Virus record (IMG/VR): IMGVR_UViG_3300032315_001390
Coordinates: 2,417-66,416 of that record
Length of the DNA: 64,000 nt
DNA from: a virus
Strand: one strand, 5' to 3'
The position numbers and the translations under genes are program-made. The notes under the pieces are model-generated. The model searched no databases. It saw only the letters and a list, made by a program, of their open reading frames with translations, and was not told the origin of the DNA. Positions 1 to 40,539 of the stretch are shown here, in pieces. How positions within the stretch are numbered: position 1 is the stretch's first letter; every line of letters begins with the position of its first letter.

Positions 1-330
1 GAAAATGGTCAATTACAAATTTGGACAGCGGAGATGTGGTCAATACTTTGGAATCAGTGGTTTATGGACAAAGAAGTCAAGATATCAAATGAACTAAATT
101 TTTGTTGGGCTAGTGATAAAATTACAAACTGTGAAAATAAAAAGATATTTCATTGTGCAGGGGTTGTGGAAGATATGAGAATGAACAGTTTTTATAAAGG
201 TGATTTTATTGATAGTAATCCATTAACATTATTAAAAAACAACATAAATTTCTTCGATTTTATTGATAAAGATTCCGCAACTAATTTATATGTTGAATGG
301 ATGAAAAGTGTTGCAAAAAAACTAACTTGA
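1..330 (+). CDS. hypothetical protein, 5'-partial (C-terminal fragment; frame open to window start)
   Basis: ORF 34..330 in frame 1; no stop upstream back to position 1, so the gene probably starts outside the window. Confidence 0.3.
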   Translation, partial: ENGQLQIWTAEMWSILWNQWFMDKEVKISNELNFCWASDKITNCENKKIFHCAGVVEDMRMNSFYKGDFIDSNPLTLLKNNINFFDFIDKDSATNLYVEWMKSVAKKLT

Positions 331-344
331 ATTATTTATAGACA

Positions 345-2447
345 ATGGCTTTTTCATATTCCTTAAGTGCTTGTTGTCAAAATGGGTTAACGTTTAATGT
401 TACCACAAGTGATGTTTTACCTTCACTTAATAGATTCGCATGTATACAAACTGTACAATATTCTGGTTGTGCTCAAGTTATAACTTATAATTCATCGTTT
501 ACAAAGTACGATTATCAATCAGTATCACCTTATGTTTTTGAAAGTTGTGACGATTGTTATTCCTTTTGTAATTGTTCTCCTTCATGCAATACATGTTATG
601 AATATGAGGTAATATCTGCAGGTGAAACGACTGTAAGTTTTACAGATTGTACAGGGTATCCTAGACAAATTTATTTAGGACCATCAACCACTGAGTATAT
701 TTGTGCTAAACAGGGAAGTGTTACAAGTGTAGGGTCGACAATAAATCAACTTTCACCTTGTTCTTTTGCTCCATTCTCAACCATATGTGGAAAATTTAGT
801 GGAACATCGTCAGCTATCGGTGTTACAATTGAGTATCAAGATTGTTTCTCGGGAGCTAACGTAAGTAATAAAACGATTACAGTCCAATATGGACCATCCA
901 CAGAAATCGCATATTGTGCAAGTGTTCAGGGAACTGTCATAGAAGGTAGTTTAGATTCGGATGCAGGAAGAATCGCAAATTGTGACTGTGAAGTTATTTC
1001 GGTTACACCTACACCCACACCAACCAATACTACGACACCGACTAATACAGCGACAAATACTCCAACTCCTTCAATTACTCCCACGAATACAATAACTCCT
1101 ACTGTAACTAGAACACAAGCGCCTACACCTACACCTACACCGACATTTGATCCTGTATTTGACATATATTTGTTTCAACCTTGTTGTGGTCAACCAAATA
1201 TCAGGTTTACTAATCTTAATGGTACGCCAATAGTAGGACAAGTTTTTAATATTGTTGATAGTCCAGATTTTCAAGGATGCGCTGAGTTAATACCATACAA
1301 AGCCGAAGGATCAATTTACTCAGGAAAAGGAGTTCAGTTTAATGAGGTTGTAACTTGTGAAAGTGAATTTTGTATTTGTCCAACTCCGACACCAACACCA
1401 ACAGTAGTTTGTAAATGTAATAACTATAACATTTTTAATGGTGGTGTATCGGGTTATTTTTCGTATACTGACTGTGATAATAGTTTCAGAACGGTTTACC
1501 TTGAAAAAGGTGCTACAGTTGCTATATGTTCTTGTTCTGATAAAAGTTTAATATTGCCTCAATATTTTACCTATGTTTTAGTAGGACCATGTCAAGTACC
1601 AAGTTCAACACCGCCTCCTACTCCGACTCAGACACCTTCTAATTCAGCGGCACCATCTTTATGTCCTATCACAGGGTTTTGTTTGAACAGTTATTTTTCA
1701 TCAATAGAAATTTATGATGGAAATTATTACGCAGCACCAGGGACATACAATTCGAGAACATATTATACGGGTACTACAGGTGCTTACATATATTATAATA
1801 CAGGTACTACGACTTGGTGTTTGTCAACAATTATTGGTGGGAATTGTATTTTATTCGGATCCACACCGTGTAATGGACCGTGTCCTGATTTTGGTAGTTC
1901 ATATTTCTCAAGTGGTGGATGTTTAACTACGACAACTACAACATCTGGTTGTGAGACGTTTGATTTCGAAGGGTATTTTGATTGTGCACCGACTGCGATT
2001 ACACCAACGATATCGGCAACTATGACACCGACCCCTACTATGACGATGACACCAAGCTCGACTAACTATTGTTTTTCGTATAATAGTGATGTTAGTTTCA
2101 GTTCTTATACTTCAACAACTACAACAAGTACTACAACTACTACGACAATCAACCGAGATTTATTAGTAACAGGTGAAGAGAATTTTATGTTAATAAGTAC
2201 TTTATTTCTTAGTCCTGGTCAGTGTTTTTGGTTTAGATTATGTGATAGTTTAGTAGATTATTACATACAACCGTCAGATTTGTTTGATGATGTAAACTTA
2301 ATAATAGATCAGGTATATGATATGAACATAAATGGAGTGAGATATTGTTATACATTCTTGGGAGCGATAACAGCATCTCCAAATGCATTTACCACTCAAA
2401 TAAACAGTAATTATGTCAATTGTGCGACATGTATAAGTAATTTGTAA
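345..2447 (+). CDS. Cys-rich modular protein with Pro-Thr linkers (putative virion surface, fibre or adhesin protein)
   Basis: 700-aa ORF; several TPTPTPT linkers separate Cys-rich modules (e.g. CYEYEVISAGETTVSFTDC...TEYICAKQGSV). The same module types recur in 2674..6579 and 34399..40539. Confidence 0.6.
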   Translation: MAFSYSLSACCQNGLTFNVTTSDVLPSLNRFACIQTVQYSGCAQVITYNSSFTKYDYQSVSPYVFESCDDCYSFCNCSPSCNTCYEYEVISAGETTVSFTDCTGYPRQIYLGPSTTEYICAKQGSVTSVGSTINQLSPCSFAPFSTICGKFSGTSSAIGVTIEYQDCFSGANVSNKTITVQYGPSTEIAYCASVQGTVIEGSLDSDAGRIANCDCEVISVTPTPTPTNTTTPTNTATNTPTPSITPTNTITPTVTRTQAPTPTPTPTFDPVFDIYLFQPCCGQPNIRFTNLNGTPIVGQVFNIVDSPDFQGCAELIPYKAEGSIYSGKGVQFNEVVTCESEFCICPTPTPTPTVVCKCNNYNIFNGGVSGYFSYTDCDNSFRTVYLEKGATVAICSCSDKSLILPQYFTYVLVGPCQVPSSTPPPTPTQTPSNSAAPSLCPITGFCLNSYFSSIEIYDGNYYAAPGTYNSRTYYTGTTGAYIYYNTGTTTWCLSTIIGGNCILFGSTPCNGPCPDFGSSYFSSGGCLTTTTTTSGCETFDFEGYFDCAPTAITPTISATMTPTPTMTMTPSSTNYCFSYNSDVSFSSYTSTTTTSTTTTTTINRDLLVTGEENFMLISTLFLSPGQCFWFRLCDSLVDYYIQPSDLFDDVNLIIDQVYDMNINGVRYCYTFLGAITASPNAFTTQINSNYVNCATCISNL

Positions 2448-2454
2448 TAAGACT

Positions 2455-2670
2455 ATGCCTATCCAAATAACCATAAACGCAATGACAGGGTCAAGCCCTT
2501 ATGATGTTTATTTATGTGATTCTCAAATAATTAATTGTTTTTACATAACAACAATAACAAGTTTACCGTATGTTTTTGATGTTCCACCACCTTTGGATAG
2601 TCAAGCGTCTGCTTGTGTCAAAATAGTTGATAACCTAAATTGTGAAACATATACCTGTCAAACTTTTTAA
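2455..2670 (+). CDS. small Cys-rich hypothetical protein
   Basis: 71-aa ORF sitting between two giant Cys-rich genes. Confidence 0.3.
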   Translation: MPIQITINAMTGSSPYDVYLCDSQIINCFYITTITSLPYVFDVPPPLDSQASACVKIVDNLNCETYTCQTF

Positions 2671-2673
2671 CAA

Positions 2674-5600
2674 ATGGCAATTCAAACTAAAGTATTTAAT
2701 AACTGTTTAAATTCATCTGATACTCAGGTATTTCAGTATAACGATTTATTGTTTGTACCTGGAAGTGTGGTATCACAAAATGGTAATTGTTATAAAGATA
2801 CCTTAGTGAATTCTAACTTGGTAGCGACATTTAATATAACTTCCTCAGGGTTTACATCGTGTCAAGAGTGTTTGACAACCACTATGACTGGGCTAGTAAT
2901 TTCTAGTTGTACAAATTCAATTTTATCATATATCACTATACCTAATGATGAGGTTCCTCCGATTGGATACTCTCTTTATTATCTTTCTGAGTGTTGGACA
3001 ATTATATCGGCAACAACTGAGTTTTATAACGTACAAACAAACGTCACTTCGTTTGAAGATTGTGAAACATGTACTTTATTTGGTGGTACTACTGAAAGAA
3101 ACCAAGGCGGCCCTAAAGGTCCTGGAGAACCTACAACACCCAATTGGCGTGTAGAAGAATTTGCAAATTGTTGTAACAGTAGTGATATAAAATGTTTTCA
3201 AATCGATCTTAATAGTTGGGGTAACACCGGGAATCAAATTGCTATTGACTCAACAGTTACTCCAAATGTTCTCTACTATAGGACAGGATCTTTGAATTAT
3301 AACGGAATTGCTCAAGATACTTTTGCTGTTTTTATTTTTACATCTTGTTTAAATGCCGCTAATAATGAGTTAAATTGTCCAACACTTACTCCGACCCCAA
3401 CACCAACACCCACACTTCCAATTTATCAGTACTATGGGAATACTGTACTGATTGATGGTACTCCACCATCATTCAATGAAGCTTGTAATGGTTGGTTGTA
3501 TCAAAAATCATATTATGGATCTAAACCACTAAATTTGTTAGCGGTAAATGATTATTTATACACAAGTCCGAGTCGGGGTCAATCTGATGTTGTTCAAGGA
3601 TCCAATACTGCAGTATTACCACTCGCGTCAAACTCATCAGGTAATGATATAAGATATTTTCAGGTTCGTGGCACTGGTAGAATTGCGGCAATTGTTAATT
3701 GTGTACCTATCACTTGGTATGTATATGTTTCACCTGATCAGTATACATCACCAGGGGTTTGGAGTTTTGCTGATCGTGATGATGCTTGTGATTATCCTTA
3801 TGGTTCATCGTGGGTTTATGTTTATGGTCTAAAACCTATTGATCAACTAACCACTGGCGATATATTGTATAATACACAATCCCTTAATAATCCAAGAGTT
3901 AGGATAGGATCAGGTCCTTTACAATACCAACCTATGTTCACTTGGGATAGTAATACTCAAACAACAACAGGTCTTAAATATTTAGTACAATATGCTGGAG
4001 GAGCTAATGGGGCGATACAAACTATAGACACATGTGATAATCTTTTCCCCCCGACAACTCCCACACCAACGCCAACATCAACTGGATGTCCAGCAATCAA
4101 GGTCGAATGTAATTCGTTTCAACTGAGGGCTGTTGGAAATACATCAGTAACATTCCGTTACAATCGATGTACGACAAGTGGTATTGACTATGATTTTGAG
4201 ATAACTGTTGCTGCATATGGTGTTGAACCTGTTTGTAGTCAAAATACACCAATTTATGTTTCAGGTGGTCCGTATTCCATAAGTCCTCAGGGGTCTATTT
4301 GTTTAATATTATGTATTGACCCAACACCAACTCCAACAAATACTGTGACCCCTTCAATTACTCCAACTAATACTATAACACCTACACAAAGTCGTAGTTT
4401 TGGAGCAACTCCACTACCTACGGAATCACCCACACCTACAAACACTCAAACACCCACAACTACTACTACTCCGACACCAACGACACCATCTATAACACCA
4501 TCTATTACACCATCAATAACCCCCTCTAATAGTCGAGCGGCAACTACAACTACAACTAGACCACCAGCTATTAATGAGTGTGGATTGGTGACAGTACAAC
4601 CTATGGGGGTTACTTGTACTGTTATAAATCCAACGGTTTCGGGTGGTTTAGCCACAGCAATTTTAAATGTTACTGGTGGTACTGGTCCTTACGATTATCT
4701 TTGGGATGATGGATCCACTACTTCTTATCTTACTAATTTGGTAGCAGGTACTTATGAAGTGACCGTATCAGATTATTTCAGTGATTATGTCATCAGAACT
4801 TTTTGTGTAGTGTCATCCGCACCATCGACACCAACTCAGACACCCACACCTACAATAACACCTACAATAGGACTATCACCTACTAACACGCCTACATCTA
4901 CGTTAACACCGACACCATCATCAACTCCACCACTTATATTATGCGCAACTTTCTCACTTAAAGATTCAACAGGTGTTGTTCGGTACGAACAATATCAATT
5001 TAATTTTAATACGATCATTGCAGGATCATATTCTTGGACGGCAAACACTTCACAAAATTATTTGACAAACACAGGATTTCTTTTACTTAGTTTTGGGGGT
5101 GGACCAAGTGGGGTTTGGTCAATAAGTCAGGTTTTAAACACGAACAACATCGAATGGTTTTTTACAGTACAAACATCTGTTGCTTCGAATATTGTACCGA
5201 CAAAAGGTTGGTACATCAATGGGAATACCACTTATATTGATAGTTTTAACAGAACAAATGTCATACAAAGTGTACAAGTAGAATCGGGAACTTGTAAAGT
5301 AATTACTTTGAATGCAACATTGACTAGTGTGAATGCGACTTGTCCTCAATATTCAGACGGCAGTATTACAGTTGTTGCTAATGGTGGAACACTACCATAC
5401 ACTTATTCATTGGATAGTTTTAATTACACTCCGAATAATACCTTTTTAAATCTTTCTAGTGGCTTTTACACTGTTTATGTTAAAGATAGTGATACGACAC
5501 CACAAATATTTTCAGAATCTATAATTGTGGACACGGTATACTCACAACCACAACCAACAAATTTAACCTTCAGAAGAGTTAATTTTGTACCAGGTTCAAA

Positions 5601-6579
5601 TAATAATCAACCTACAATAATCGATGAGTTCTCACAATATGAATTAAATTTAAATGGATTATCAAATGGAGTTAGTTTATCAACATTCGATTTGAATTTA
5701 CAAATTCAAAATATCACCAAACAACCTGGTGTAACAAATGCTAACGGTACCACAGTAAGGGTCTCGGTAAATAATACTCAAATATTCTTTACGAGTATTA
5801 CTCAGTCAACATTATGGACTCAAACCAATTCACAACTCCGTGGTAACACAGCATGTCCAACCGACCTCACAATCACAAAACAAATAATAACAACTATCCC
5901 TGTTGTTCAATTACTCGGTCAAAATTTGAATAGGACGGACAATGTTGTTGTTGAAATTACAAATAAAGCTCAAATAGTAACACCTTCGCCACAACGTACT
6001 TGTCCTACTGAATTGACAAACACAATAATCCTTTCGTCAATATATGCAACCTTCGGTCCAACGCAAATATGTTTTCCTTTGGTTGGTAATCCGAGCATAA
6101 GTGAAAATGCATTTAGGACGGCTGCACAGTCAATAAGTCCAACATACACGGGTAATTGGACAGTACAAGTAGCAGGTATAGCGACATGTGTGGAAATACT
6201 GAGCGTAAAAACTTCTGGAATGGACGATTCAACATCTTTGAGATTTGATTGTAATAACCAAGTGGGTAGTGTACCTAACCCATTCACATCTTCCTCAGTT
6301 TCTACAAATCAAACTTCGATTGTTTCACCTCCTAATGCACCTTCTTGTGGTGATTCTATTATATGGGTTAATCCAGAAACGTTCACGATAAATTATTTTG
6401 TAAATAGTCCATGTACTCAATGTTCAGGTAATTATGAACTTAGCTTATCAGTCAATAATACTGGAGTTCTTGTGAGTTCTACAATCCCTATGGTACCTGG
6501 TAATGGACTTGTGACTTTCGATAACATAGTAATAAACAGCAATAGTATAGTAACAATCAAAATTGATTGTATAATTTAA
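2674..6579 (+). CDS. giant Cys-rich modular protein with PT/TPS linkers (putative structural, host-recognition protein)
   Basis: 1301-aa ORF; linker [24 protein letters not shown] is shared with the 2046-aa minus-strand protein; beta-rich T/S/N-rich segments. Confidence 0.65.
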   Translation: MAIQTKVFNNCLNSSDTQVFQYNDLLFVPGSVVSQNGNCYKDTLVNSNLVATFNITSSGFTSCQECLTTTMTGLVISSCTNSILSYITIPNDEVPPIGYSLYYLSECWTIISATTEFYNVQTNVTSFEDCETCTLFGGTTERNQGGPKGPGEPTTPNWRVEEFANCCNSSDIKCFQIDLNSWGNTGNQIAIDSTVTPNVLYYRTGSLNYNGIAQDTFAVFIFTSCLNAANNELNCPTLTPTPTPTPTLPIYQYYGNTVLIDGTPPSFNEACNGWLYQKSYYGSKPLNLLAVNDYLYTSPSRGQSDVVQGSNTAVLPLASNSSGNDIRYFQVRGTGRIAAIVNCVPITWYVYVSPDQYTSPGVWSFADRDDACDYPYGSSWVYVYGLKPIDQLTTGDILYNTQSLNNPRVRIGSGPLQYQPMFTWDSNTQTTTGLKYLVQYAGGANGAIQTIDTCDNLFPPTTPTPTPTSTGCPAIKVECNSFQLRAVGNTSVTFRYNRCTTSGIDYDFEITVAAYGVEPVCSQNTPIYVSGGPYSISPQGSICLILCIDPTPTPTNTVTPSITPTNTITPTQSRSFGATPLPTESPTPTNTQTPTTTTTPTPTTPSITPSITPSITPSNSRAATTTTTRPPAINECGLVTVQPMGVTCTVINPTVSGGLATAILNVTGGTGPYDYLWDDGSTTSYLTNLVAGTYEVTVSDYFSDYVIRTFCVVSSAPSTPTQTPTPTITPTIGLSPTNTPTSTLTPTPSSTPPLILCATFSLKDSTGVVRYEQYQFNFNTIIAGSYSWTANTSQNYLTNTGFLLLSFGGGPSGVWSISQVLNTNNIEWFFTVQTSVASNIVPTKGWYINGNTTYIDSFNRTNVIQSVQVESGTCKVITLNATLTSVNATCPQYSDGSITVVANGGTLPYTYSLDSFNYTPNNTFLNLSSGFYTVYVKDSDTTPQIFSESIIVDTVYSQPQPTNLTFRRVNFVPGSNNNQPTIIDEFSQYELNLNGLSNGVSLSTFDLNLQIQNITKQPGVTNANGTTVRVSVNNTQIFFTSITQSTLWTQTNSQLRGNTACPTDLTITKQIITTIPVVQLLGQNLNRTDNVVVEITNKAQIVTPSPQRTCPTELTNTIILSSIYATFGPTQICFPLVGNPSISENAFRTAAQSISPTYTGNWTVQVAGIATCVEILSVKTSGMDDSTSLRFDCNNQVGSVPNPFTSSSVSTNQTSIVSPPNAPSCGDSIIWVNPETFTINYFVNSPCTQCSGNYELSLSVNNTGVLVSSTIPMVPGNGLVTFDNIVINSNSIVTIKIDCII

Positions 6580-6589
6580 ATTTACAGAA

Positions 6590-8752
6590 ATGGGATACAT
6601 CATTAAAAATACTTCAGGATTAATCAACACACAAATCACAGATACGGGTAGAAAATATCTGTCACAAGGTAATTTCAACATTGCATATTTTCAGGTCGGA
6701 GACTCAGAGGTTTGTTACACAGGCGGATCCACCATACCAAATGGATTTATTTTTGAAGCGGATTATAACGCTCAAAACTCAACAGGTTATCCACAATCAA
6801 ACAGAGAATATATCAAATATCCTTATTACTTAGAAGGTACTTCAGGTAACACTTTTGGTATTCCGACTGATTTGTCAGCAGAAGTGTTGATTTTTAACTA
6901 CACCGATATGTTAGGTTTTTTTGTTAGTGGTGGTTCAAATACCTATACCGTAAATGGAAACACAGGTTATACTATATCATCAAATTACGTATTCGATTTG
7001 TCTACTTTGACAGGCGGTTATACTGTTACTTTATCTAGTAATATTTGCGTAACAAGTATTGGAATACCCACTTTAAATGATTTTGTAACATTGTATTTTG
7101 ATTTTACAGCACCCTGTGGTAGTTTAGACAATTTTATGATTTTAACATATAGAATATTGAGTGTAGATAATCTTGGTGGAGGTAGTTATGAGATTACCTT
7201 AGATCGTACTGTACCTGATTTCTCAACAGTCCCACTTTGTCCTGGTCAAGGTAGAGCCTATTTGTATCCCGAGTTCATGACCGATCTATATGATGTGACA
7301 GTTCCAACAAACTATTTCGCCTCACCATGTGCAACAACACCACAAGTTAACATTTGGAATATGAACATACCTTGGAGTGAAAGCCCAGCAGGTTTGATTG
7401 AAACTAGTTATCAAGGTTACACCTATTTTGGGTCAATCAATTACATAGGTAGTAAAGAATACTTAGGATATCAAACTGATAGTGGTCAATATTTTGTGGA
7501 TAGTTCAGGAGTAACAGCTACAACGGATTCATTCTATTTCAATTCATTAGGAGATAGAATTGATGTAAAACCGTCTGAACAAAAAGCAATAGCTATAGTT
7601 AGTTATACAAATCAAAGTATTAACAATTATTATGGAGAAAAGTTTGCAGTTGAACCTTTTGATCCGTCAATTCCTGGTCAAGAAGGGCAAGCAAGAAATC
7701 TTAAAGTTGTATTACCAACACTTATGTGGCATAAATCTACAGGTGGTACAATCGGAGAAACATTTTACATCGATCCACCAGGGTTTAATCTACTATCACC
7801 ATCTTATATGGAAAGTACTAAAAACTCTGATTTTAATACCCCTGGTATGAGATACTACCATTTATGGGACACAAACGCAAACCCAAATGGTATCCCAAAC
7901 AGAGTTGGTAAAGTTTACCCTGATTCTAAAATAGTAGTATTTGACGATGAAGAAATCGTAGCAGCAATGTCCTATAAATCAAACCGAAATTGGACTTTAC
8001 CAGCCCCACAACTTAATTTATTAGCACCGAACTTGTGTACAGGTGATATTGATTCTGTTGGTATTTTGACAGACAACACTCAAACCCTTTATTTAACTTA
8101 TAGGTTTGATTCTACTGCATATACTCAATCGTTACACTGTAACTATTATTCGAAAATTGTGGGTCCCACGGGAACAACACAACCAATGAATGTTGCTTTG
8201 AGGTTTGGAAATGAGTTTCCATTCTTAAGTGAAGGGTGTTACGGTTTTCATGCAAATAGTATGAAAATATTAGTTCAAATTGTTACTACAGGATTTAAAC
8301 CATTACCCAATGGTTGGACAGAAATCGATGTTACTTCGGATCTTGTAGGTACATTAGTTGATGGGTATATTGTACAATCAGGTATTACAAATACAACTTT
8401 CGTAATTAGTTTGAATGATTTTACAGGGGGAACAAGATATAATTTAGCAAATTATATCAATCTCCCAACTCTTGGAACAAATAACGGATTGAATTTTGGC
8501 GATGAGTATTATTTCTATGGAAACTTTATTACTGATATCGAGGCAACGATTTATGAAATGAAATATGGTATCAATTTGTCAAATCAACAATTTACAAACA
8601 CCTCAAATCCAACAAGTACTGGTACAACAAATAACTATTTAACTGAAATTGGTCTTTATAATTTACAGAAAGAACTTATGATTTTATCAAAATTACAGTA
8701 TCCAGTTTTAAGACAAGGATTGCAACAATTTTTAGTAAAATATGACTTTTAA
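6590..8752 (+). CDS. large hypothetical structural-like protein (T/S/G/Y-rich)
   Basis: 720-aa ORF placed immediately after the giant gene; composition typical of fibre or baseplate proteins; no catalytic motif seen. Confidence 0.5.
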   Translation: MGYIIKNTSGLINTQITDTGRKYLSQGNFNIAYFQVGDSEVCYTGGSTIPNGFIFEADYNAQNSTGYPQSNREYIKYPYYLEGTSGNTFGIPTDLSAEVLIFNYTDMLGFFVSGGSNTYTVNGNTGYTISSNYVFDLSTLTGGYTVTLSSNICVTSIGIPTLNDFVTLYFDFTAPCGSLDNFMILTYRILSVDNLGGGSYEITLDRTVPDFSTVPLCPGQGRAYLYPEFMTDLYDVTVPTNYFASPCATTPQVNIWNMNIPWSESPAGLIETSYQGYTYFGSINYIGSKEYLGYQTDSGQYFVDSSGVTATTDSFYFNSLGDRIDVKPSEQKAIAIVSYTNQSINNYYGEKFAVEPFDPSIPGQEGQARNLKVVLPTLMWHKSTGGTIGETFYIDPPGFNLLSPSYMESTKNSDFNTPGMRYYHLWDTNANPNGIPNRVGKVYPDSKIVVFDDEEIVAAMSYKSNRNWTLPAPQLNLLAPNLCTGDIDSVGILTDNTQTLYLTYRFDSTAYTQSLHCNYYSKIVGPTGTTQPMNVALRFGNEFPFLSEGCYGFHANSMKILVQIVTTGFKPLPNGWTEIDVTSDLVGTLVDGYIVQSGITNTTFVISLNDFTGGTRYNLANYINLPTLGTNNGLNFGDEYYFYGNFITDIEATIYEMKYGINLSNQQFTNTSNPTSTGTTNNYLTEIGLYNLQKELMILSKLQYPVLRQGLQQFLVKYDF

Positions 8753-16934: not shown

Positions 16935-17735
16935 ATGAAAGACAAACAATTTTCAATCGGACTAGATCAAAAACAAATCGCATATTACCTTAAAGATGTA
17001 AAAAAACTCAAGGTAATGACACCTGAACGAGAGAGAGAACTTTCGGAGATAATGTGTAGTGGTAATGTTTCAGAGGAACAAAAAAATAGTATTTACCAAG
17101 AACTAATTGATGGTAATTTAAGATTTGTAATTACTGTCGCCAAACAATATCAGAATCAAGGTATGGATCTTGATGACTTAATTGCTGAAGGAAACGTAGG
17201 ACTACTTAAAGCAATACAAAATTTCGATTGGACTAAGAAACTTAGATTTATTTCTTATGCTGTATGGTGGATCAAACAATCTATTTTTCAATCATTAAAT
17301 GAACACTCAAGAACTATTCGTTTACCAGTCAATATTGTTCAAGAGATGCAAAAAGAAAAGAAAAACTTCAAACCAATCAACGAATTCGAGTTTAACGACA
17401 AGTTTGCTAACTTACCAACCACATCGTCATACAACAAAATCAATGAGGAAGGAGATGAATATATTAGTTCACTTGCAGATACTAATGGGGAAATGCCCGA
17501 CGATCCCTTTGACACCAAAGTACAACTCATTGCAAAACTAATGACTATGTTAGATATTTTAGATTCAAGGGAAAGAGGTATTATATCTGAGTATTTTGGG
17601 TTATCAGGTAAACCAAAAACATTAGAAGAAATAGGTTCAGGTTTGAATCTTACCAAGGAGAGGGTAAGGCAAATTAAAGAAAAAGCGCTTCGTAAATTAC
17701 GAAATGATAGTATGGAATTGTTTGAATACATGTAA
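16935..17735 (+). CDS. sigma-70 family RNA polymerase sigma factor (regions 2-4 present)
   Basis: Region 2: LRFVITVAKQYQNQGMDLDDLIAEGNVGLLKAIQNFD...FISYAVWWIKQSI; region 3: RTIRLPVNIV; region 4.2 HTH: LEEIGSGLNLTKERVRQIKEKALRKLR. Confidence 0.8.
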   Translation: MKDKQFSIGLDQKQIAYYLKDVKKLKVMTPERERELSEIMCSGNVSEEQKNSIYQELIDGNLRFVITVAKQYQNQGMDLDDLIAEGNVGLLKAIQNFDWTKKLRFISYAVWWIKQSIFQSLNEHSRTIRLPVNIVQEMQKEKKNFKPINEFEFNDKFANLPTTSSYNKINEEGDEYISSLADTNGEMPDDPFDTKVQLIAKLMTMLDILDSRERGIISEYFGLSGKPKTLEEIGSGLNLTKERVRQIKEKALRKLRNDSMELFEYM

Positions 17736-24844: not shown

Positions 24845-25470
24845 GCAGTTTCTTTACGATACAGGTAATCTATATTGATACCTTTTTTTGTCAAAAAATC
24901 GTATAGGTACTTCCTTTGTGCGACATCAAGATCTCTCACAAACATACAATCATATTTTTTAATATTTTTGAAGTATTCGAAAAGTTCGTCAAATAGTCGA
25001 TGAACTTCTTCATCTGTTTTGAGAACAAAAATCGATAATAATTCTTCATTCTGAACAATCATTTTATTGTTTAGTTTTGAAATCATTTTCAAACCATCCT
25101 GGGAAAGATAATTTTTAATAAATTTCTCAACAGTAATTTTTTTCTTGTGTTGATAATCAAATATCAACTCTGGTTCTCTGTAAGTTTCGATTTTTACTAT
25201 CTGATAATTACTATCATCTAAATCAACTTTTTGGTTTCTTCCGAATTCATCACGAATAAAAAATGGTGTTATTTTATTTGATTTTTTTTGTAACAAACCC
25301 AATTCTAAAGAAACTATTTTCCCACCAACAACTTTTTTTTCGAACAATACTTTTTCACTTTTTTCAAGCATTTTTTGGTAAAATTCTTCTGCTTTTTGTT
25401 TGTTGGCATATTTCTTGATTATTCTTCTTTTGACTTTATTTTTGAATAAAACAATTTGAAAATTCAACAT
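24829..25470 (-). CDS. hypothetical protein (divergent from dnaJ)
   Basis: Long minus-strand ORF in an AT-rich genome; first in-frame ATG at 25470 (the track start 25488 is TTG). Confidence 0.4.
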
Positions 25471-26418
25471 ATGAAAGACTATTATCAAATATTAGGAGTG
25501 GATAAAAAATCATCTAACGATGAAATTAAAAAAGCTTATCGTAAATTAAGTAAACAATATCATCCAGATGTAAACCCTCAAGGTGAAGAAAAATTTAAAG
25601 AAATCGCTGAAGCTTACGATATTTTGGGTGACGACAATAAAAGAAAAAGTTATGATATGGGTGGAATGGATATGTCAGGATTTGGATCAGCGTTTGAGGA
25701 AATGTTTAAGAACATGGGAGGGAACAATCCATTTGCCTCTCATTTTGGAAATAGAAACAGGAGACCTCAAGTTCCAGACAAAGTTATTCAAGTAGATATT
25801 ACTCCATTAGAATCTTTTCAATCAGTCGAAAAAGAGGTTAATTATCGTAGAAATATTGCATGTGATGGATGTAATGGTTCAGGTGGAGAAAAGCAAACCT
25901 GCGTAACTTGTAACGGTTCTGGACATATACAACAAGTTTTTGGTAATGCTTTTTTTAGACAGGTTCAAACTACTGTTTGTACAACCTGTCATGGAACAGG
26001 ACAAAAAGTCATAAAAGCTTGTTATGGTTGTGGTGGTTCAGGAGTAAAACCCGAAATTAAAAATCTAAAATTCAAAATACCACACGGAAGTGATTCGGGA
26101 GATTTTTATAGATTGGATGGATTGGGTGATTATCATAATCCAGTTGGTTTTGGTAATTTATTGGTAAAAATAAATATGACCAACACTAACACTTGGGAAA
26201 AAATGGGAAATGATTTGATTTACATTAATGTATTGAACTATGAGGAACTTAAAAATGATGATTTTACAGTACCTCACCCTGACGGAGAACTAAAATTAAA
26301 GTTTCCCGAGATGTTTGACACATCGGTACCTTTAAGAGTTAAAAATAAAGGGTTTAAAAAAGATGAACGTGGTGATCTTTATGTAAGAAACGTAGTTAAA
26401 TTCAAAAGAAACTTTTGA
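25471..26418 (+). CDS. dnaJ: DnaJ (Hsp40) co-chaperone with J-domain, G/F region and CxxCxGxG zinc-finger repeats
   Basis: [10 protein letters not shown]...[13 protein letters not shown]-domain with the HPD motif; [25 protein letters not shown] and CYGCGGSG repeats; ATG at 25471 (track start is TTG). Confidence 0.8.
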
Positions 26419-31741: not shown

Positions 31742-33019
31742 ATGAATGTAATTGGAACAGAAATTACCGCAGAATATATTTGGTTAGATGGTTACAAACC
31801 AGAACCAAACCTTAGAAGTAAGGTTAAAATATTAAAAGAATGGAAAGGTCACAGATTTACAGCTGATTTTTACCCTGAATGGTCTTTTGATGGATCATCA
31901 ACTCGACAAGCAGAAGGGCATTACTCAGACAGAGTTCTGAAACCTGTTAAGGTTTATAAAAATCCATTCCAACATGGAGACTATCATTTTTTTGTGTTGT
32001 GTGAAGTTTGGAATCCTGACGGTACACCACATGAAAGTAATGTTAGACACTTGTTACGAGACCATGATCAAATTTGGTATGGTTTCGAACAAGAATATAC
32101 CATACTCCAAGATGGTAGACCGTTAGGTTTTCCCGTCAATGGTTATCCCAAACCACAAGGTACATACTACTGTGGGGTAGGGAGTAATCAAGTTCATGGT
32201 CGTCAGTTTGTTGAAGAACACTTGAATTTGTGTTTGAAAGCAGGATTAAATATCACTGGTATTAATGCAGAAGTATTATTGGGTCAGTGGGAGTTCCAAA
32301 TTTTGGGTGAATCTTCTTTAGAAGCGGCCGATGACTTGTGGATGGCAAGGTACATACTTCAGAGACTATCCGAAAAATATCGATATAACATAGAATTTCA
32401 TCCAAAACCTGTAGAAGGAGATTGGAATGGTAGTGGATTACATTGTAATTTCTCAAACCAAAAAATGAGAACGAGTGGTGGTGAACAATATTTTAAATCA
32501 ATACTTAAGGCTTTTGAAATAAGACACGATCTACATATCGAAAATTATGGTTCTTCTAATGAACTTAGATTGACTGGTAAACATGAAACTCAGTCTATTG
32601 ATAAGTTTAGTTGGGGAGTGTCAGACAGAGGGGCATCAATAAGAGTTCCGCTCAAAACCGCATCGGAATGGAAAGGTTATTTGGAAGACAGAAGACCCGC
32701 ATCAAATGCAGATCCATATAAAATTGTAAAAGTCATTTCAGAAACATTGAGTGCGTCTGAAACAATGATTGCAACTCATAAACTAATGTATGACGATGTA
32801 AATATAAATAATTTAAAGAATAAGTATTCAACACTATCAAATGATGATCTATTGTCTGAATATAAAAAGGATAATGAAACCGAAAGTCTTGAATATGATA
32901 CCTGTGGGATTTGTGGTATCAAAACTAGACAACTTAAATCGGCACACATTGATACTCGTATAGGTTATGTTGAGGGAGCAGGACAAGGTTGTGATGGATC
33001 ATGTGGGACTTTTAAATAA
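31742..33019 (+). CDS. glnA: glutamine synthetase type II (eukaryote-like GSII) with an unusual Cys-rich C-terminal extension
   Basis: AEYIWLDG N-terminus; TYYCGVGSNQVHGRQFVEEH...GINAEVLLGQWEFQILG (GSII catalytic signatures); an extra about 80-aa tail carries CGICG...GQGCDGSCG. Confidence 0.85.
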   Translation: MNVIGTEITAEYIWLDGYKPEPNLRSKVKILKEWKGHRFTADFYPEWSFDGSSTRQAEGHYSDRVLKPVKVYKNPFQHGDYHFFVLCEVWNPDGTPHESNVRHLLRDHDQIWYGFEQEYTILQDGRPLGFPVNGYPKPQGTYYCGVGSNQVHGRQFVEEHLNLCLKAGLNITGINAEVLLGQWEFQILGESSLEAADDLWMARYILQRLSEKYRYNIEFHPKPVEGDWNGSGLHCNFSNQKMRTSGGEQYFKSILKAFEIRHDLHIENYGSSNELRLTGKHETQSIDKFSWGVSDRGASIRVPLKTASEWKGYLEDRRPASNADPYKIVKVISETLSASETMIATHKLMYDDVNINNLKNKYSTLSNDDLLSEYKKDNETESLEYDTCGICGIKTRQLKSAHIDTRIGYVEGAGQGCDGSCGTFK

Positions 33020-33026
33020 AATCACT

Positions 33027-33260
33027 ATGGAAAAAAATGAAATGGTAAACCATCCCTCTCACTACGGAGGGATTGACAATCCTTATGAGGCAATTAAAGT
33101 AATCGAAGCTTGGGATTTGGACTTCCATCTTGGAAATACGGTCAAGTATATCTCAAGAGCTGGAAAGAAAAATGTAGACAAAGAACTTGAGGATCTCTTG
33201 AAAGCTAAATGGTATTTGGATAGGAAAATAGAAAAAATTAGAAATCAATTTGATAATTAA
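33027..33260 (+). CDS. DUF3310-like phage protein (HPSHY motif)
   Basis: NHPSHYGG...IEAWDL..GNTVKYISRAG.K; ATG at 33027 just after the GS stop. Confidence 0.45.
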   Translation: MEKNEMVNHPSHYGGIDNPYEAIKVIEAWDLDFHLGNTVKYISRAGKKNVDKELEDLLKAKWYLDRKIEKIRNQFDN

Positions 33261-34375
33261 TTACAGTTACCATCAACTTGTAAAAGATAGGCGGCATCAT
33301 TTTGGTAAAAATCTGAAAACCCTCTATACGAAGTAATATAAACCACAGTTGGAGACTGAAGTGGTTTGTCAAATCGCAATTTTATTGGGCTAGAGCTAGA
33401 AGGTGATGATCCACTTGGGTAGTCGGATACTACACCTATTTGACCAGGACTACCGTATGTAGGTACAACAGATCCCCATGGAAAGTTGTCAGCAGATCCC
33501 CATATGTCATTTCTATCACGACTTCTCAATGCTAAAAACCCTTCGTTGTCGATTTCATTTTGTGTAAAACCACTCGTAAGACATGGTATGCCATAAGGAT
33601 ATAAACTATTTTTTTCACTAGTAGGAACCCATGTCCAAATATTATTCCCATTACAGTCATAGTAACAATTTGAATACACTGGATTTCCTATCGGGTTATT
33701 AAATGATTGGTTTCTCCAATATTGTTTTACTCTATCGCCATATTCTGTGCCAGGTCTTAAACCATTTCCGATAAAAAGTGAGTCACAAACTTTAGTTATA
33801 CCTGCTTGACCACCCATGGTACCATCGTATTGCCACCAAATTTGAAATCTGTTTGGCCGCCAACCAACTGAAAAAGTGAAGTCTATATCACCTGTATTTG
33901 TTCCAATATCCAATGCGATACTTGATACCATAATAGAACTATCTTGTCGTAAAACTTCGATAGGATTGTTCCAATTCCAACATGAAGATGGTTGACAAAC
34001 ATTTGTTAAAATGTTTTGATTGTAAGGTGACGGTGTAATCCCTAAACAAGGTTTACAAGTTGTGTCAGTTCCACATGGAAATACATTTGCACAAGTGCTA
34101 CATTGATTTCCTCCTGAAAACATAAAGTTATTATCTACAGACCACGCATTTGAATCAAATGTTACTAAAGTCGGAGTTGTAGAAATTCTGTAACAATTTT
34201 TAATACCCCTCCTATTTATTGGTGTGTTTGTATTTCCTGTCCAAACAAGGACCATTGAACTGTATGGTGGAGAGGTAAGATCTATGTCACAAGAAAAATT
34301 CAGTGGAATTTTCTCATAAGTTTCTTGTGATGGACAACATGCTTGTAAATCACACAAATAGGTAATACAGCTCAT
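33257..34375 (-). CDS. Cys-rich secreted or structural protein (downstream partner of the 2046-aa giant gene)
   Basis: 372-aa ORF with an N-terminal half rich in Cys, G/N/W-rich; co-directional with and 24 nt after 34399..40539. Confidence 0.55.
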   Translation of the reverse strand: MSCITYLCDLQACCPSQETYEKIPLNFSCDIDLTSPPYSSMVLVWTGNTNTPINRRGIKNCYRISTTPTLVTFDSNAWSVDNNFMFSGGNQCSTCANVFPCGTDTTCKPCLGITPSPYNQNILTNVCQPSSCWNWNNPIEVLRQDSSIMVSSIALDIGTNTGDIDFTFSVGWRPNRFQIWWQYDGTMGGQAGITKVCDSLFIGNGLRPGTEYGDRVKQYWRNQSFNNPIGNPVYSNCYYDCNGNNIWTWVPTSEKNSLYPYGIPCLTSGFTQNEIDNEGFLALRSRDRNDIWGSADNFPWGSVVPTYGSPGQIGVVSDYPSGSSPSSSSPIKLRFDKPLQSPTVVYITSYRGFSDFYQNDAAYLLQVDGNCN

Positions 34376-34398: not shown

Positions 34399-37300
34399 CT
34401 ATCTTTTAAAAAATTTAACGTTGTAAGTGTTTCCAACAACTAAGTCGAAATTGTTCGAAGTGAGACAATTAGAATTTGTTGGGGTTATTTGTAAAATATA
34501 ACTCCCCGATATTCCATTTACTGTAACGGCAATAATTGAAAATTCTCTCATTTTAGATGTTGATGGATCAGAAACACTGAGTAAATCTCCGTTCGACAAA
34601 GAACTTAGAAGTGTTACTGGCCCTGTAATTGAATTTGGGTTAAGTATTAACCTTGCAATTGAACACGAGGAATAAATTGTAACGTTACTTGAATTTCTAG
34701 CATTAAATTCCCCGTTGGTTAAAAATGCAGCGGATTTTGTTGTAAAACTCCAAGAATAAATTGGGAAAGGTGTTGGTGTTGGTGTGGGAGTTGTTGTTGG
34801 TGAAGGTGTTGGATTTAAACAAACATTACATCCTGTGGTTGTGTATCCGGTTATGAAACCATTGTTGTCGGGATATGTGTAATTCTTCAAAATTTGACTT
34901 GTGTCAATTCCTTGAATTATAGTGGGAGGTATAAATACATCTAAATACAAACAACAATCTGTCAGACCTAAATTATCAACGGTGTAATTGTTTTCTACCC
35001 AACTATAGTTGTCATTCATTATTGTGCCTGTGTATACGATGTTTCCAGTACAACAATCTCTTAATACTACACAACTCTCACTAGCGAACCCGATATTGCT
35101 ACAACCACAAGATTGACCTATATCAATTGGAATATTCAAGTAATTTGATACTAGTCCGAATATTGGGTCATTAGGATTATTGACAGTTCCCCACTCATTT
35201 ACTAGAAAACCTATTGGATCTGTTCCTAATGAATATGGTATATTGAGAGGATAAGTAGTTGTAAAATTTGCACAATTGTTAAATGTAAATTGTTCTGTAT
35301 AAAAGGCCCACCATTCAAAAGGGTTTACGGTACAAGCTGTATATGCTGGTAAAAAGTTTATAGTAGTATTTGCGGAGTTTTGTGTAATAGAAATTGTAGT
35401 AAGTGTCGGGAAATTATTACCACCACATGTTGGAATTTCCCATAACTCTGTTAGACCTTGTTGTATTAAATCTGTTGATGTGGCAATGGTAACACACTCA
35501 AAGCCAGAAGCACATCCATAATAACACCCACAATTGTTATTGTTGTTCAAAATTAATAATCTCTGATAGACGTTATTATTTGGTGAACCTGAAATAAACA
35601 ACGGACCTCGATAACTACAAATTGAAAAAGAACTTGGATCCCAACTTGAATCTACATTCATTACAAAATTATTTCTATCACAATCAGTGTAAGTAAATGT
35701 GACCGATTCTCCTAGGTTCAAATTATTAGTAAATTCCCAAGTCGAACAAATCCCGACAGTCATTGGAATTTGTGGAATTGGGTTTGTACAAATTGTTTTT
35801 AATGTTGGTTCTGTTTCGACATAAGGACCACCAGAAGAATCAATGATTAGAGGAATTGTTAAACTACAAATAAAATAAGTATCTGAATATAATGGAAGTA
35901 TAGGATAATTTGTTACACCACTTTGGTCACAAGGATTGTAGACCATATTTTCAATAATTGCTAAATTTGGAACCACAACTTCCCAAGTGAAACATAAACG
36001 TTCAATACAATTATTTGATATTAAAACTGCACATGCAATGTCTTCACAATTAGAATCGAATGGGAAAATAGGTGGAGTACATGAACAAACAGTGAATTTA
36101 GTTTTTGGAAAATAGTGTGTTGTATACCCAAAATCTGTTGGAGATTTCCGTCTTTCAATATCATAGCAATCAGTATATTCTATCCAATCGATACAACCTT
36201 GAATTGTAGAACTTGAACTATTTGGTTGTACTGTGACTAAATATTCGGAACAGGGACAGAGAGGACAAGAACCTGTATTGACAATCGGAACGCAACTTTG
36301 AGAACATATCGGGTTTGATTGACATGCATCACAATATGCAACAGGTTGAGTTTTAGAACAAATAACAATAATTTGATCTGTTGTAAAATACTTATTCTCT
36401 ACAAATGTTGCTACTCCGTTAAAACCAGGCAATGGTCCAGAATTGTTTATATCTATATTTTGATAATTTCCATCACAATCAACATATTGAATCTGATATA
36501 CTGAATTATTAACAATATTTAATGTATATTGAATACAAGGGGCTTCCGTTGTACTTGGACTAGGAGTAAGAGTTGTGGTTGGTGTTTGTGTTACAGTTTG
36601 GGTTGGAGTTATAGTAGGTGTGGTTGTTTGTGTAGGGGTTATTGTAGAAGTTGGGGTTGAAGTTAGTGTTGGTGACGCAGTATTTGTTGGTGTATTGGTC
36701 GGTGTTTTAGTTAAGGTACTTGTTGGTGTTTGAGTGTTTGTTGGTGTTTGAGTGTTTGTAGGAGTATTGGTTGGGGTTTGGCTGGTTGTAGGAGTATTGG
36801 TTGGGGTCGGAGACACCGTAGGAGGTGGAGTTGAACCTGGACTACGGGTTGGTGTTGGTGTTACAGTATTTGTTGGAGTGTTTGTTGGTGTTCGAGAAGT
36901 TGTTGGAGTGTTTGTTGGTGTTCGAGAAGTTGTTGACGTAGGAGTTTGAGTTGGGGTGGAAGTTCGTGTTGGAGTATTTGTTGGTGTAGTTGTTGGAGTA
37001 GATGTAGTTGTCGATGTAGGTGTTGTTGTTTGTGTCGGTGTTGGCGTCTTTGTGGGAGTAGAAGTTACTAGGGGTGTTGGATTACAAAGATTACCACATT
37101 GTAGTTGTTCAGCAATAGTTGCGGCAACACCTGATGAAGTAGAAACAGTTCCTTGTCGAGCACAAATGTATTTCGTTTCACCTACGACCATACTGAAGAC
37201 AGTTACCAATCCAGCACATTGATTATATTGAATTTCACAACCTCCATTTGCGACAACACTATATTGGAAACAAGGAGGACAAGTTGGTGTAACTGTGGTG

Positions 37301-40300: not shown

Positions 40301-40539
40301 TCATTAGTAAAACAATTTGTTTCTAAAAAAGTTATATTTTCAAACGGTGTATTAAAATATCCGTTTTCGTACCAAATAGTTAAAACTTCACCAGGACTTA
40401 TTTGATTTCCTGTAGATATGAAATCCTCATTACAGTATCTGTAATTAAAAGTGGCAATTACTGGACCATCATTCCGAATAATAGATTTTAAACAACTACA
40501 ACTCACACTTTTTTTATTATAATTATCTGTCAAGTTCAA
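34399..40539 (-). CDS. giant (2046 aa) Cys-rich modular protein with multiple long P/T/S/N/Q linkers (putative virion fibre, adhesin or host-recognition protein)
   Basis: Single uninterrupted ORF; at least 5 Cys-rich modules ([10 protein letters not shown]...[14 protein letters not shown]...CACS, CFQYSVV...[19 protein letters not shown]...CSCT) separated by linkers such as [27 protein letters not shown] repeated four times; no ATG at the 5' end (TTG start at 40539). Confidence 0.7.

Follow-up and report, generated by a model that had tools for sequence, protein, structure and literature searches.

Three giant genes of a large aquatic phage, probably infecting Bacteroidota, carry an undescribed family of cysteine-rich modules between proline/threonine linkers

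The 64,000 nucleotides analysed here (the window) are positions 2,417 to 66,416 of a virus, IMG/VR record IMGVR_UViG_3300032315_001390, and are part of the genome of a large aquatic phage. Within them, three giant open reading frames (ORFs), here called A, B and C, carry twelve copies of one small cysteine-rich module, F1, which is a real homologous family and, in terms of known domains, a previously undescribed one. From the places in which the same module sits in other phages, we infer that A, B and C are virion-surface proteins, and moderately favour the reading that they are paralogous 'beads-on-a-string' fibres or adhesins of a phage whose host is probably in the Bacteroidota. What a phage sticks to is decided by its modular fibre and adhesin proteins, and no other part of environmental phage genomes is annotated so poorly. 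F1 has a confidently predicted fold, and defining it gives one name to about 130 so far anonymous stretches of about 47 metagenomic proteins (probably of many more), as a unit open to expression and glycan-binding tests. It is worth noting that the domain family and its unusual architecture are new; the class of phage protein to which A, B and C would belong is a familiar one.

A first-pass annotation of this DNA had proposed that modules are common to these three genes on both strands. All three ORFs, and every string it had quoted, were found in A, B and C where it had placed them. For segmentation, proline/threonine-rich (PT) stretches were masked, and the short cysteine (Cys)-containing segments that remained were compared all against all by BLASTP. 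Each protein is a succession of such segments and of PT linkers of 16 to ~260 amino acids (aa) that are 60–70% Pro+Thr. Besides F1 (three copies in A, one in B and eight in C), the segments include a tentative group of unrelated modules, F2, and, by eye, a third module, F3. The genes, the F1 copies and the quoted strings are listed below, with scores from the external-only profile described in the next paragraph.

345 to 2447, plus strand: ORF A, 700 aa, 45 Cys; F2, F1, F1, PT linker, F2, F1, linker, Tyr/Gly/Cys module X, linker, T-rich stretch, F2
585 to 761, plus strand: F1, A aa 81–139, holding TEYICAKQGSV; 44.8 bits, a score reached by 0/500 shuffles
690 to 722, plus strand: quoted string TEYICAKQGSV, A aa 116–126
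786 to 989, plus strand: F1, A aa 148–215; 19.1 bits, 0/500 shuffles
1404 to 1541, plus strand: quoted strings VVCKCNNYNIF, YTDCDNSF and CSCSD, A aa 354–399
1410 to 1592, plus strand: F1, A aa 356–416 (CKC...YTDC...CSC...C), the module that was modelled (AlphaFold2 pLDDT 95, five strands); 41.5 bits
2674 to 6579, plus strand: ORF B, 1301 aa; three F2, linker, F3-like pair, linker, F1, long linker, SprB repeat, linker, unknown domain, SprB repeat, C-terminal domains
4087 to 4314, plus strand: F1, B aa 472–547; 35.1 bits, 0/500 shuffles
34399 to 40539, minus strand: ORF C, 2046 aa, TTG start, 81 Cys, 38% Pro+Thr; F1, linker, then twice the unit F2, long linker, F1, linker (the second unit without its trailing linker), long linker, F1, long linker, four F1, Cys-rich core, F2, linker, C-terminal domain
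40312 to 40500, minus strand: divergent N-terminal F1, C aa 14–76; 16.8 bits
39085 to 39315, minus strand: F1, C aa 409–485; 25.9 bits
37840 to 38010, minus strand: quoted strings YTDCNNVL and CACSS with the quoted string that precedes them, C aa 844–900
37777 to 38007, minus strand: F1, C aa 845–921 (CAC...YTDC...CAC); 18.3 bits, 0/500 shuffles
37084 to 37281, minus strand: F1, C aa 1087–1152, holding the second quoted YICA-type string; 39.1 bits
37144 to 37176, minus strand: that YICA-type string, C aa 1122–1132
35530 to 36537, minus strand: four tandem F1 with no PT linkers between them, C aa 1335–1670; 15.8–40.7 bits

Several comparisons establish F1 as one family. Firstly, the all-against-all alignment of modules that had been suggested as a check gives related pairs both within and between proteins, with BLASTP E-values down to 1e-14; for F1, C 414–486 matches C 845–920 at 8e-9 and A 1–216 matches C 1092–1152 at 5e-7. 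All twelve segments fit a single alignment pattern, C-x-C-x2-[YW]-x-[IV] ... [IVF]-x-[YF]-x-[DN]-C ... [IV]-C-[AS] ... C. The two separate module types named by the first-pass annotation (CxC...YTDC...CxC and ...YICA[KR]QG[ST]V) do not stand as such, as both fall within this alignment as sub-variants of F1; its module size of about 80 aa lies inside a broader measured range of ~60–85 aa. Secondly, profiles built with one protein left out recover most F1 modules across proteins. A profile made only of external sequences (90 modules of unrelated metagenomic proteins, with window sequences and their orthologues excluded) finds 12 of the 12 window modules at 15.8–44.8 bits, where the best of 500 composition-matched shuffles per module score 6–13 bits and 0/500 reach the observed value. 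Thirdly, a search of metagenomic proteins, also proposed at the outset, finds F1 again in unrelated proteins, usually between PT- or T-rich linkers. The module is rare: a search of 1.84e9 representative proteins with the 12-module profile gave 50 matches at E<=1e-3, not all of them true. The true matches are orthologues of A (P0008, P0013) and of B (P0033), the C-like protein P0032, and ~30 unrelated proteins with 1–6 clean copies, mostly flanked by such linkers; the false or partial ones are low-complexity proteins and Bacteroidota adhesins of the type IX secretion system (T9SS), whose HYR_4C repeats match only at 'TFTYTDCxGN'. Local iteration brought the family to 130 modules in 47 proteins, with the consensus C..C..Y.vtN.......t..YtDCdG......l.pg....iCA..gpv....g....it..G.C. 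No match was found by tblastn among 50,697 GenBank phage records with A, the core of C, gene E (the gene directly after B), P0042 or a concatenate of four F1 modules, and an exact-sequence look-up of protein A returned no record.

One must consider that proteins rich in Cys, Thr, Asn and Tyr, encoded in an AT-rich genome and aligned by eye over short stretches, can resemble each other through composition alone. Pairwise identities between F1 modules are just 18–31%, and about half of the F2 members fail shuffle controls, as such an artefact would predict. Composition-preserving shuffles never match the observed F1 scores, however, the same pattern recurs throughout the 130 modules of 47 proteins, and the confidence of the AlphaFold2 model climbs from 81 to 95 once unrelated metagenomic modules join the alignment. 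For F1 the artefact was tested and rejected, and we rate its probability as practically negligible; for F2 it remains a caution.

The first-pass annotation had not recognised the modules as known domains, and F1 is indeed absent from Pfam, NCBIfam and PDB. Pfam finds nothing in A or C and SprB repeats alone in B, yields no consistent family for 31 full-length external F1 proteins, and gives only eleven different single matches for 64 isolated F1 modules at E<=10. NCBIfam has no match for F1 proteins, an F1 profile search of PDB sequences produced one match (streptavidin, E 0.08) that was treated as chance, and the literature search found no description of F1 or its companion modules. Foldseek, another suggested check, matched mainly uncharacterised phage proteins: in the predicted viral structures of BFVD, the same module occurs in uncharacterised proteins of uncultured tailed phages at query template-modelling scores (TMq) of 0.81–0.85. 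The possibility raised in advance, that the modules would prove to be well-known Ig-like or fibronectin domains, did not materialise for F1: its profile matches no Ig-like, FN3 or PKD family, and the structure search showed no seven-strand Greek-key sandwich. Only one library family gives significant matches, the PHROGs family phrog_15511 (function unknown), which A matches at E 6.8e-9 and C at E 1.9e-32 over four stretches, together with four external F1 proteins; this is a whole-protein cluster whose matched stretches include PT linker, and it does not define the module.

F1 could nonetheless descend from a known superfamily, as a diverged HYR/Ig-like repeat (HYR_4C type, T9SS cargo) from the surface adhesins of host Bacteroidota, an ancestry that concerns origin and is compatible with a fibre or adhesin function. 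HYR_4C is likewise a small Cys-containing beta repeat, arrayed in very long T9SS surface proteins of the phylum inferred for the host of the window phage, and the hairpin motif [FY]-T-[FY]-T-D-C-x-G-N is common to both. The F1 profile catches the 'TFTYTDCxGN' stretch in T9SS proteins, hhalign aligns 15 columns around YTDCxGN (probability 72%), a module of P0039 (a Bacteroidota protein described below) reaches a sub-threshold 21.5 bits against the cut-off of 27, and the SprB repeats of B are another adhesin element of that phylum. The alignment, however, is limited to the 15-residue motif. Module length differs, as do the gaps between cysteines (~21, 19 and 22 residues in F1 against ~16, 18 and 13 in HYR_4C), and HYR_4C arrays end in a CHU_C sorting domain, which A, B and C do not carry. 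The HYR_4C profile (PF23237, 73 positions, cut-off 27 bits) finds no match in A, B or C at E<=0.1, and 63 of 64 isolated F1 modules have none even at E<=10, the remaining one matching at E 0.037. On balance, we consider this ancestry unlikely.

The cysteines of F1 are its most informative feature with regard to fold. Four core cysteines, separated by median gaps of 21, 19 and 22 residues, have 93–100% occupancy, and two optional ones lie 2 residues before the first and 2 residues after the third, each forming a CxC. The optional pair is complete in 23 modules and missing altogether in 83, with one member only in 5 and 7 (12 discordant), a covariation with a Fisher p of 8e-14, or 7e-9 with external modules only; each of the seven modules holding only the second optional cysteine (C5) has another Cys a few residues upstream. 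Conserved cysteines that are even in number and covary in pairs are what a disulfide-stabilised extracellular module would show, and their coming and going in pairs argues for disulfides and not for metal sites. Modelled by AlphaFold2, as had been proposed, A aa 355–418 with 64 aligned modules gives a confident all-beta model of five strands, with a predicted local distance difference test (pLDDT) of 95 and a predicted template-modelling score (pTM) of 0.79; a 12-sequence alignment gives a pLDDT of 81. In model numbering, the optional pair (residues 2 and 43) and a core pair (4 and 41) have the same sum, which fits neighbours on antiparallel strands 1 and 4. The predicted fold is thus a five-strand, all-beta one with two conserved disulfides and an optional third, in which the bonds would be C1–C5, C2–C4 and C3–C6.

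Cysteines in CxC and CxxC spacings, which are common in A, B and C, could instead bind metal in zinc-ribbon-like clusters, in proteins that act in the reducing cytoplasm; the three proteins are made there and have no evident signal peptide. In F1, however, the optional cysteines are gained and lost as a pair and not as a set of four, the core ones stand ~20 residues apart at strand ends of the all-beta model and not in knuckle motifs, no histidines accompany them, and in one protein F1 follows a lipoprotein-type N-terminus, which places it outside the cytoplasm. Metal binding is accordingly very improbable in our estimation.

The case for a virion-surface role comes from the other proteins in which F1 occurs. 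P0024 (2336 aa) matches phrog_14478, a 'virion structural protein', in its N-terminal part (E 3e-220, best stretch aa 6–762) and ends C-terminally in six F2–F1 pairs, and on its 41.6-kb contig a neighbouring gene has a crAss_MUZ_C domain. For P0025, a prohead protease is three genes away and a portal gene is nearby, and P0055 has a T4 gp13-like gene on one side and a tail sheath gene on the other. Nor is F1 restricted to phages: P0039 (186 aa), from the Bacteroidota metagenome-assembled genome JAYWAZ01, has a lipoprotein-like N-terminus (MKKYLFIAATSILFVAC, by eye) followed by two F1 modules, and its neighbours, read by eye from translations, are a glycosyltransferase, histidine kinases and a LuxR-type regulator. 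It is split over two contig ends:

L007, 1 to 372: one part of P0039
L008, 3284 to 3834: the other part of P0039

Taken together, these four proteins point to F1 as an extracytoplasmic module of both phage particles and Bacteroidota cells.

Several points weigh against reading A, B and C as virion fibres. The window has no recognisably structural gene: A and B adjoin replication and recombination genes, and C lies between a GlnA-like gene and unknown genes. PHROGs assigns A, B and C to no tail-fibre or structural family, only to phrog_15511, and no tail-fibre or tailspike homology was found for A, B, C or E in PHROGs and Pfam, or by tblastn of the phage collection. With regard to the module itself, the external F1 set was first gathered with a window-seeded profile, so the external-only test is not fully independent; a crude count gives 77 modules with an even number of Cys and 34 with an odd one, so some cysteines are unpaired or module boundaries imprecise; the disulfide pairing is derived from conservation and covariation; and F2, treated below, can be called a family only tentatively.

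If A, B and C were not parts of the virion, they would be proteins made late and released at lysis, or acting on the infected cell surface; they could be free adhesins, decoys, or matrix- or particle-binding proteins that alter the sticking of cells or progeny phage. The lack of recognised structural genes beside them is in keeping with this, as is F1 behind a lipoprotein-type N-terminus in a cellular Bacteroidota protein, by which the module is not tied to virions. Yet no signal peptide is evident by eye at the N-termini of A, B or C, F1 is found in other phages in three independent proteins that are either joined to a virion structural protein or encoded amid virion structural genes, and one of the BFVD structural matches is named 'major tail protein TP901-1' (TMq 0.83). 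We hold a non-virion role to be quite unlikely, somewhat more so than the HYR ancestry.

On the preferred reading, A, B and C would form fibres or fibrils on the virion surface, with disulfides forming once the particle leaves the cell and keeping the small modules folded. The targets of the F1, F2 and SprB modules would be glycans or proteins on the surface of the host or of particles, and the PT spacers would project these modules and hold them apart. Near-identical linker DNA would be a substrate for recombination, swapping modules between paralogues and thereby varying binding specificity. Among the window ORFs scanned, no phage-encoded thiol oxidase or thioredoxin was found.

Comparable systems differ in instructive ways. 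Accessory domains of the Ig-like, FN3 or BACON type reportedly decorate phage capsids, tails and fibres; these small beta-sandwich modules vary in number and are thought to provide weak adhesion to glycans. F1 is similarly fused to structural proteins, and the match named major tail protein adds to the likeness, but its predicted five strands are stapled by disulfides, it has no Ig, FN3 or PKD match, and in A, B and C the modules make up most of giant proteins that stand alone and have long PT spacers. In secreted glycoside hydrolases, PT-rich linkers join carbohydrate-binding modules. A, B and C, by contrast, have no catalytic domain and no evident signal peptide, and their linkers reach ~260 aa and contain a conserved RS.G.TPPPT core.

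These linkers are themselves distinctive. The near-duplicate motif reported earlier from B and C is present, with one occurrence in B and four in C. A common core starting TPTNTVTPS[IV] is found in the four long linkers of C and the long one of B, and P0032 and P0054 have cores like it. Each of these five linkers has in its middle a conserved non-PT core, R-[ST]-x-G-x-T-P-P-P-T, which is also present in P0032 and P0054 and could be a cleavage, priming or hinge site.

993 to 1160, plus strand: PT linker of A, aa 217–272
4315 to 4575, plus strand: long PT linker of B, with the core common to C
4387 to 4446, plus strand: linker motif as quoted, B aa 572–591
39316 to 39942, minus strand: long PT linker 1 of C, aa 200–408, holding the conserved core
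38008 to 38790, minus strand: long PT linker 2 of C, aa 584–844, holding the core
38401 to 38460, minus strand: linker motif as quoted, C aa 694–713
37282 to 37776, minus strand: long PT linker 3 of C, aa 922–1086, holding the core
36538 to 37083, minus strand: long PT linker 4 of C, aa 1153–1334, holding the core
36844 to 36846, 37507 to 37509, 38452 to 38454 and 39586 to 39588, minus strand: Arg codons of the four C cores

C aa 127–513 and 514–921 (37777 to 40161, minus strand) are a tandemly duplicated super-unit, 60% identical, within which conservation is higher in the linker core, at 81.6% DNA identity over 441 nt, than in the modules beside it. Identical residues use the same codon in 72% of cases in the linker core (43% expected given codon usage) and in 54–56% in the flanking modules (54–60% expected). 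The linker DNA of the super-unit is therefore homogenised, or younger than the modules; the codon excess points to gene conversion between linkers, and either origin fits recombination within them. The C-type core found in the long linker of B is absent from the B orthologues, P0033 and B' of the syntenic IMG/VR contig L002. Homogenised linker DNA beside diverged modules suggests a route for domain swapping between paralogues.

Relatives bear out the shuffled repertoire suggested when the modules were first noticed, as module content and order differ in the orthologues of L009 and in P0032. ORF A has orthologues in P0008, P0013, L002 (68% identity) and L010. In L009, whose gene E is 60% identical to that of the window, the A-like protein keeps the central and C-terminal modules and differs in its N-terminal part, and the B-like protein (746 aa) is without the block of two F3, F1 and long linker (B aa 253–634). 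P0032 has C-type modules in another order, and the C-terminal 570 aa of ORF C have seven close metagenomic relatives. Close relatives of A, B and C number fewer than 10 in 5.8 billion clusters, whereas gene E has more than 3182 homologous clusters. It appears that A, B and C evolve fast, and variable genes beside a conserved core gene would fit genes for host range or adhesion.

F2 follows the pattern 'CC ... G..[IV] ... C[YW]x[IV] ... CxxC' in nine copies, is often N-terminal and alternates with F1 in P0024. C 127–197 matches C 517–581 at 44% identity (BLASTP E 1e-14). The group looks coherent in alignment but is statistically weak: leave-one-protein-out profiles are not significant, 4–5 of 10 modules pass the shuffle control, hhalign of window F2 against external F2-like modules gives a probability of 33% over the C-terminal half only, and the F2 profile finds one match in the 5.8-billion-protein set. 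In B, Pfam identifies the SprB repeat (PF13573) over two stretches at 44.7 bits against a cut-off of 28; the two copies match each other by BLASTP at E 1e-6, and F1 and F2 fall outside this family.

39943 to 40161, minus strand: F2, C aa 127–199, 44% identical to the F2 at C aa 514–583
38791 to 39000, minus strand: F2, C aa 514–583, BLASTP E 1e-14 against C aa 127–199; tentative as a wider family
3430 to 4035, plus strand: F3-like pair, B aa 253–454, two copies of the third module, by eye
4576 to 4815, plus strand: first SprB-repeat region, B aa 635–714, PF13573, boundaries from linker segmentation
5275 to 5508, plus strand: second SprB-repeat region, B aa 868–945, best Pfam stretch aa 882–914

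The F3 pattern, '..AC......Y....l..gD.lY.......G.I..C' ('AC...YSDG'-like), appears by eye to recur in the external F1 proteins P0022, P0048, P0049 and P0050.

Whether the PT linkers carry sugars is a further question raised by the genes upstream of A. The window begins within the last gene of a sugar-modification block and contains only that gene of it; in L002 the orthologue (329 aa, phrog_4417) closes the complete cluster, which lies upstream of the A-like gene. The relatives, with E proteins just 60% identical, indicate that the linkage between sugar genes and PT-rich genes is conserved.

34 to 330, plus strand: C-terminal 98 aa of the gene cut by the window edge, 89% identical to L002 8997 to 9986
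L002, 364 to 9986: sugar cluster upstream of the A-like gene, with a DegT-family aminotransferase, two FkbM methyltransferases, a GT8 fused to a PglD-like acetyltransferase, and DUF6625
L009, 1 to 5393: sugar cluster upstream of the A-like gene, with two GT9, DegT, a GFO_IDH_MocA oxidoreductase and a hexapeptide acetyltransferase

PT-rich tracts are classic substrates of O-glycosylation. The linkers have the long Pro/Thr/Ser-rich tracts of mucin-like sequences and, in relatives, linked sugar genes, and the position of the cluster directly upstream suggests that the PT linkers of A, B and C may be O-glycosylated. Two points argue the other way: F1 loci of other phages (L001, L003, L004) have no glycosyltransferase neighbours, and what the sugar genes modify could be DNA or host polysaccharide. 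A bolder proposal, which we regard as doubtful though a little more probable than the rivals above, is that this lineage builds mucin-like virion fibrils, whose linkers would be O-glycosylated in the host cytoplasm by the phage cluster, whose F1 modules would bind glycans and whose linkers would recombine. The 100–260-aa Pro/Thr linkers would be the substrates and the RS.G.TPPPT core a recognition or priming site, and bacteriophages would thereby have an equivalent of the glycosylated fibrils found in giant viruses. In mycobacteriophages, virions are glycosylated by phage-encoded glycosyltransferases (Freeman et al. 2023, as cited in PMC12619734). In so far as that citing account describes them, those phages similarly encode their own sugar-modifying enzymes, which in the window lineage lie directly upstream of PT-rich genes; there the glycans sit on capsid and tail-tube subunits, at the C-termini, whereas here long PT linkers are the proposed, and hypothetical, sites. 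If true, this would extend phage protein glycosylation beyond the mycobacteriophages, possibly as a second case of virion glycosylation, in a seemingly very abundant aquatic lineage.

The remaining content of the window is typical of a large tailed phage. Its G+C is ~29–39% and coding is dense, predominantly on the plus strand. Its recognisable genes include those for an SbcC-like nuclease subunit, for which a metallophosphoesterase may be the SbcD-like partner, a DnaG-type primase and a PD-(D/E)XK nuclease; other genes encode a sigma-70 factor, DnaJ, a GlnA-like protein, two RNA ligases (T4-type), an amidase and an SPFH protein. No tRNA genes were found in the 64 kb. The closest records in the phage collection have ~22–47% protein identity, and the same gene order is found in L002 and in several metagenomic contigs of up to 167 kb.

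16935 to 17735, plus strand: sigma-70 factor
25456 to 26418, plus strand: DnaJ, full-length
31742 to 33019, plus strand: GlnA-like protein
6590 to 8752, plus strand: gene E, 720 aa, directly after B

The 'moraphages' are large aquatic phages with predicted Bacteroidota hosts that encode glutamine synthetase, DnaJ/DnaK and several glycosyltransferases (PMC12619734, a 2025 paper). At the level of that description the window fits and may belong to this lineage: it encodes the GlnA-like protein, DnaJ, SprB repeats and sigma-70, and its relatives have glycosyltransferases. This fit, the SprB repeats of B and the occurrence of P0039 in a Bacteroidota genome together indicate that the host is probably in the Bacteroidota. 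Gene E is a highly conserved core gene in what seems a very abundant aquatic phage lineage, with more than 3182 homologous clusters, the best 120 listed being 54–100% identical. It has no significant match in Pfam, PHROGs, NCBIfam or PDB; a candidate identity as a tail-collar-type fibre, suggested by N- and C-terminal motifs, was dropped as unsupported by these libraries. There is a resemblance between its last ~60 residues and the C-terminal end of P0011, a protein that bears F1 (E 2e-6, over a 74-residue C-terminal similarity).

Smaller ORFs accompany the giant genes. Between A and B lies a short, conserved Cys-containing ORF, which might serve as a small module in its own right or as an assembly factor; a 71-residue gene stands at the same place in L009 (7515 to 7730, clearly similar in sequence) and L010 (4170 to 4385). 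ORF D, on the same strand as C and 23 bases after it, is probably co-transcribed with it; its N-terminus looked F2-like by eye, for which the profile test gives no support.

2455 to 2670, plus strand: 71-aa ORF with 5 Cys, between A and B
33257 to 34375, minus strand: ORF D, 372 aa, 18 Cys

The plus-strand ORFs at 36956 to 37222, 37153 to 37476, 38390 to 38683 and 39524 to 39853 are antisense artefacts of the ACN/CCN linker codons of C, and one of the four has a Cys content of 18%. These same codons account for a GC skew of 0.42–0.56 at 36–40 kb.

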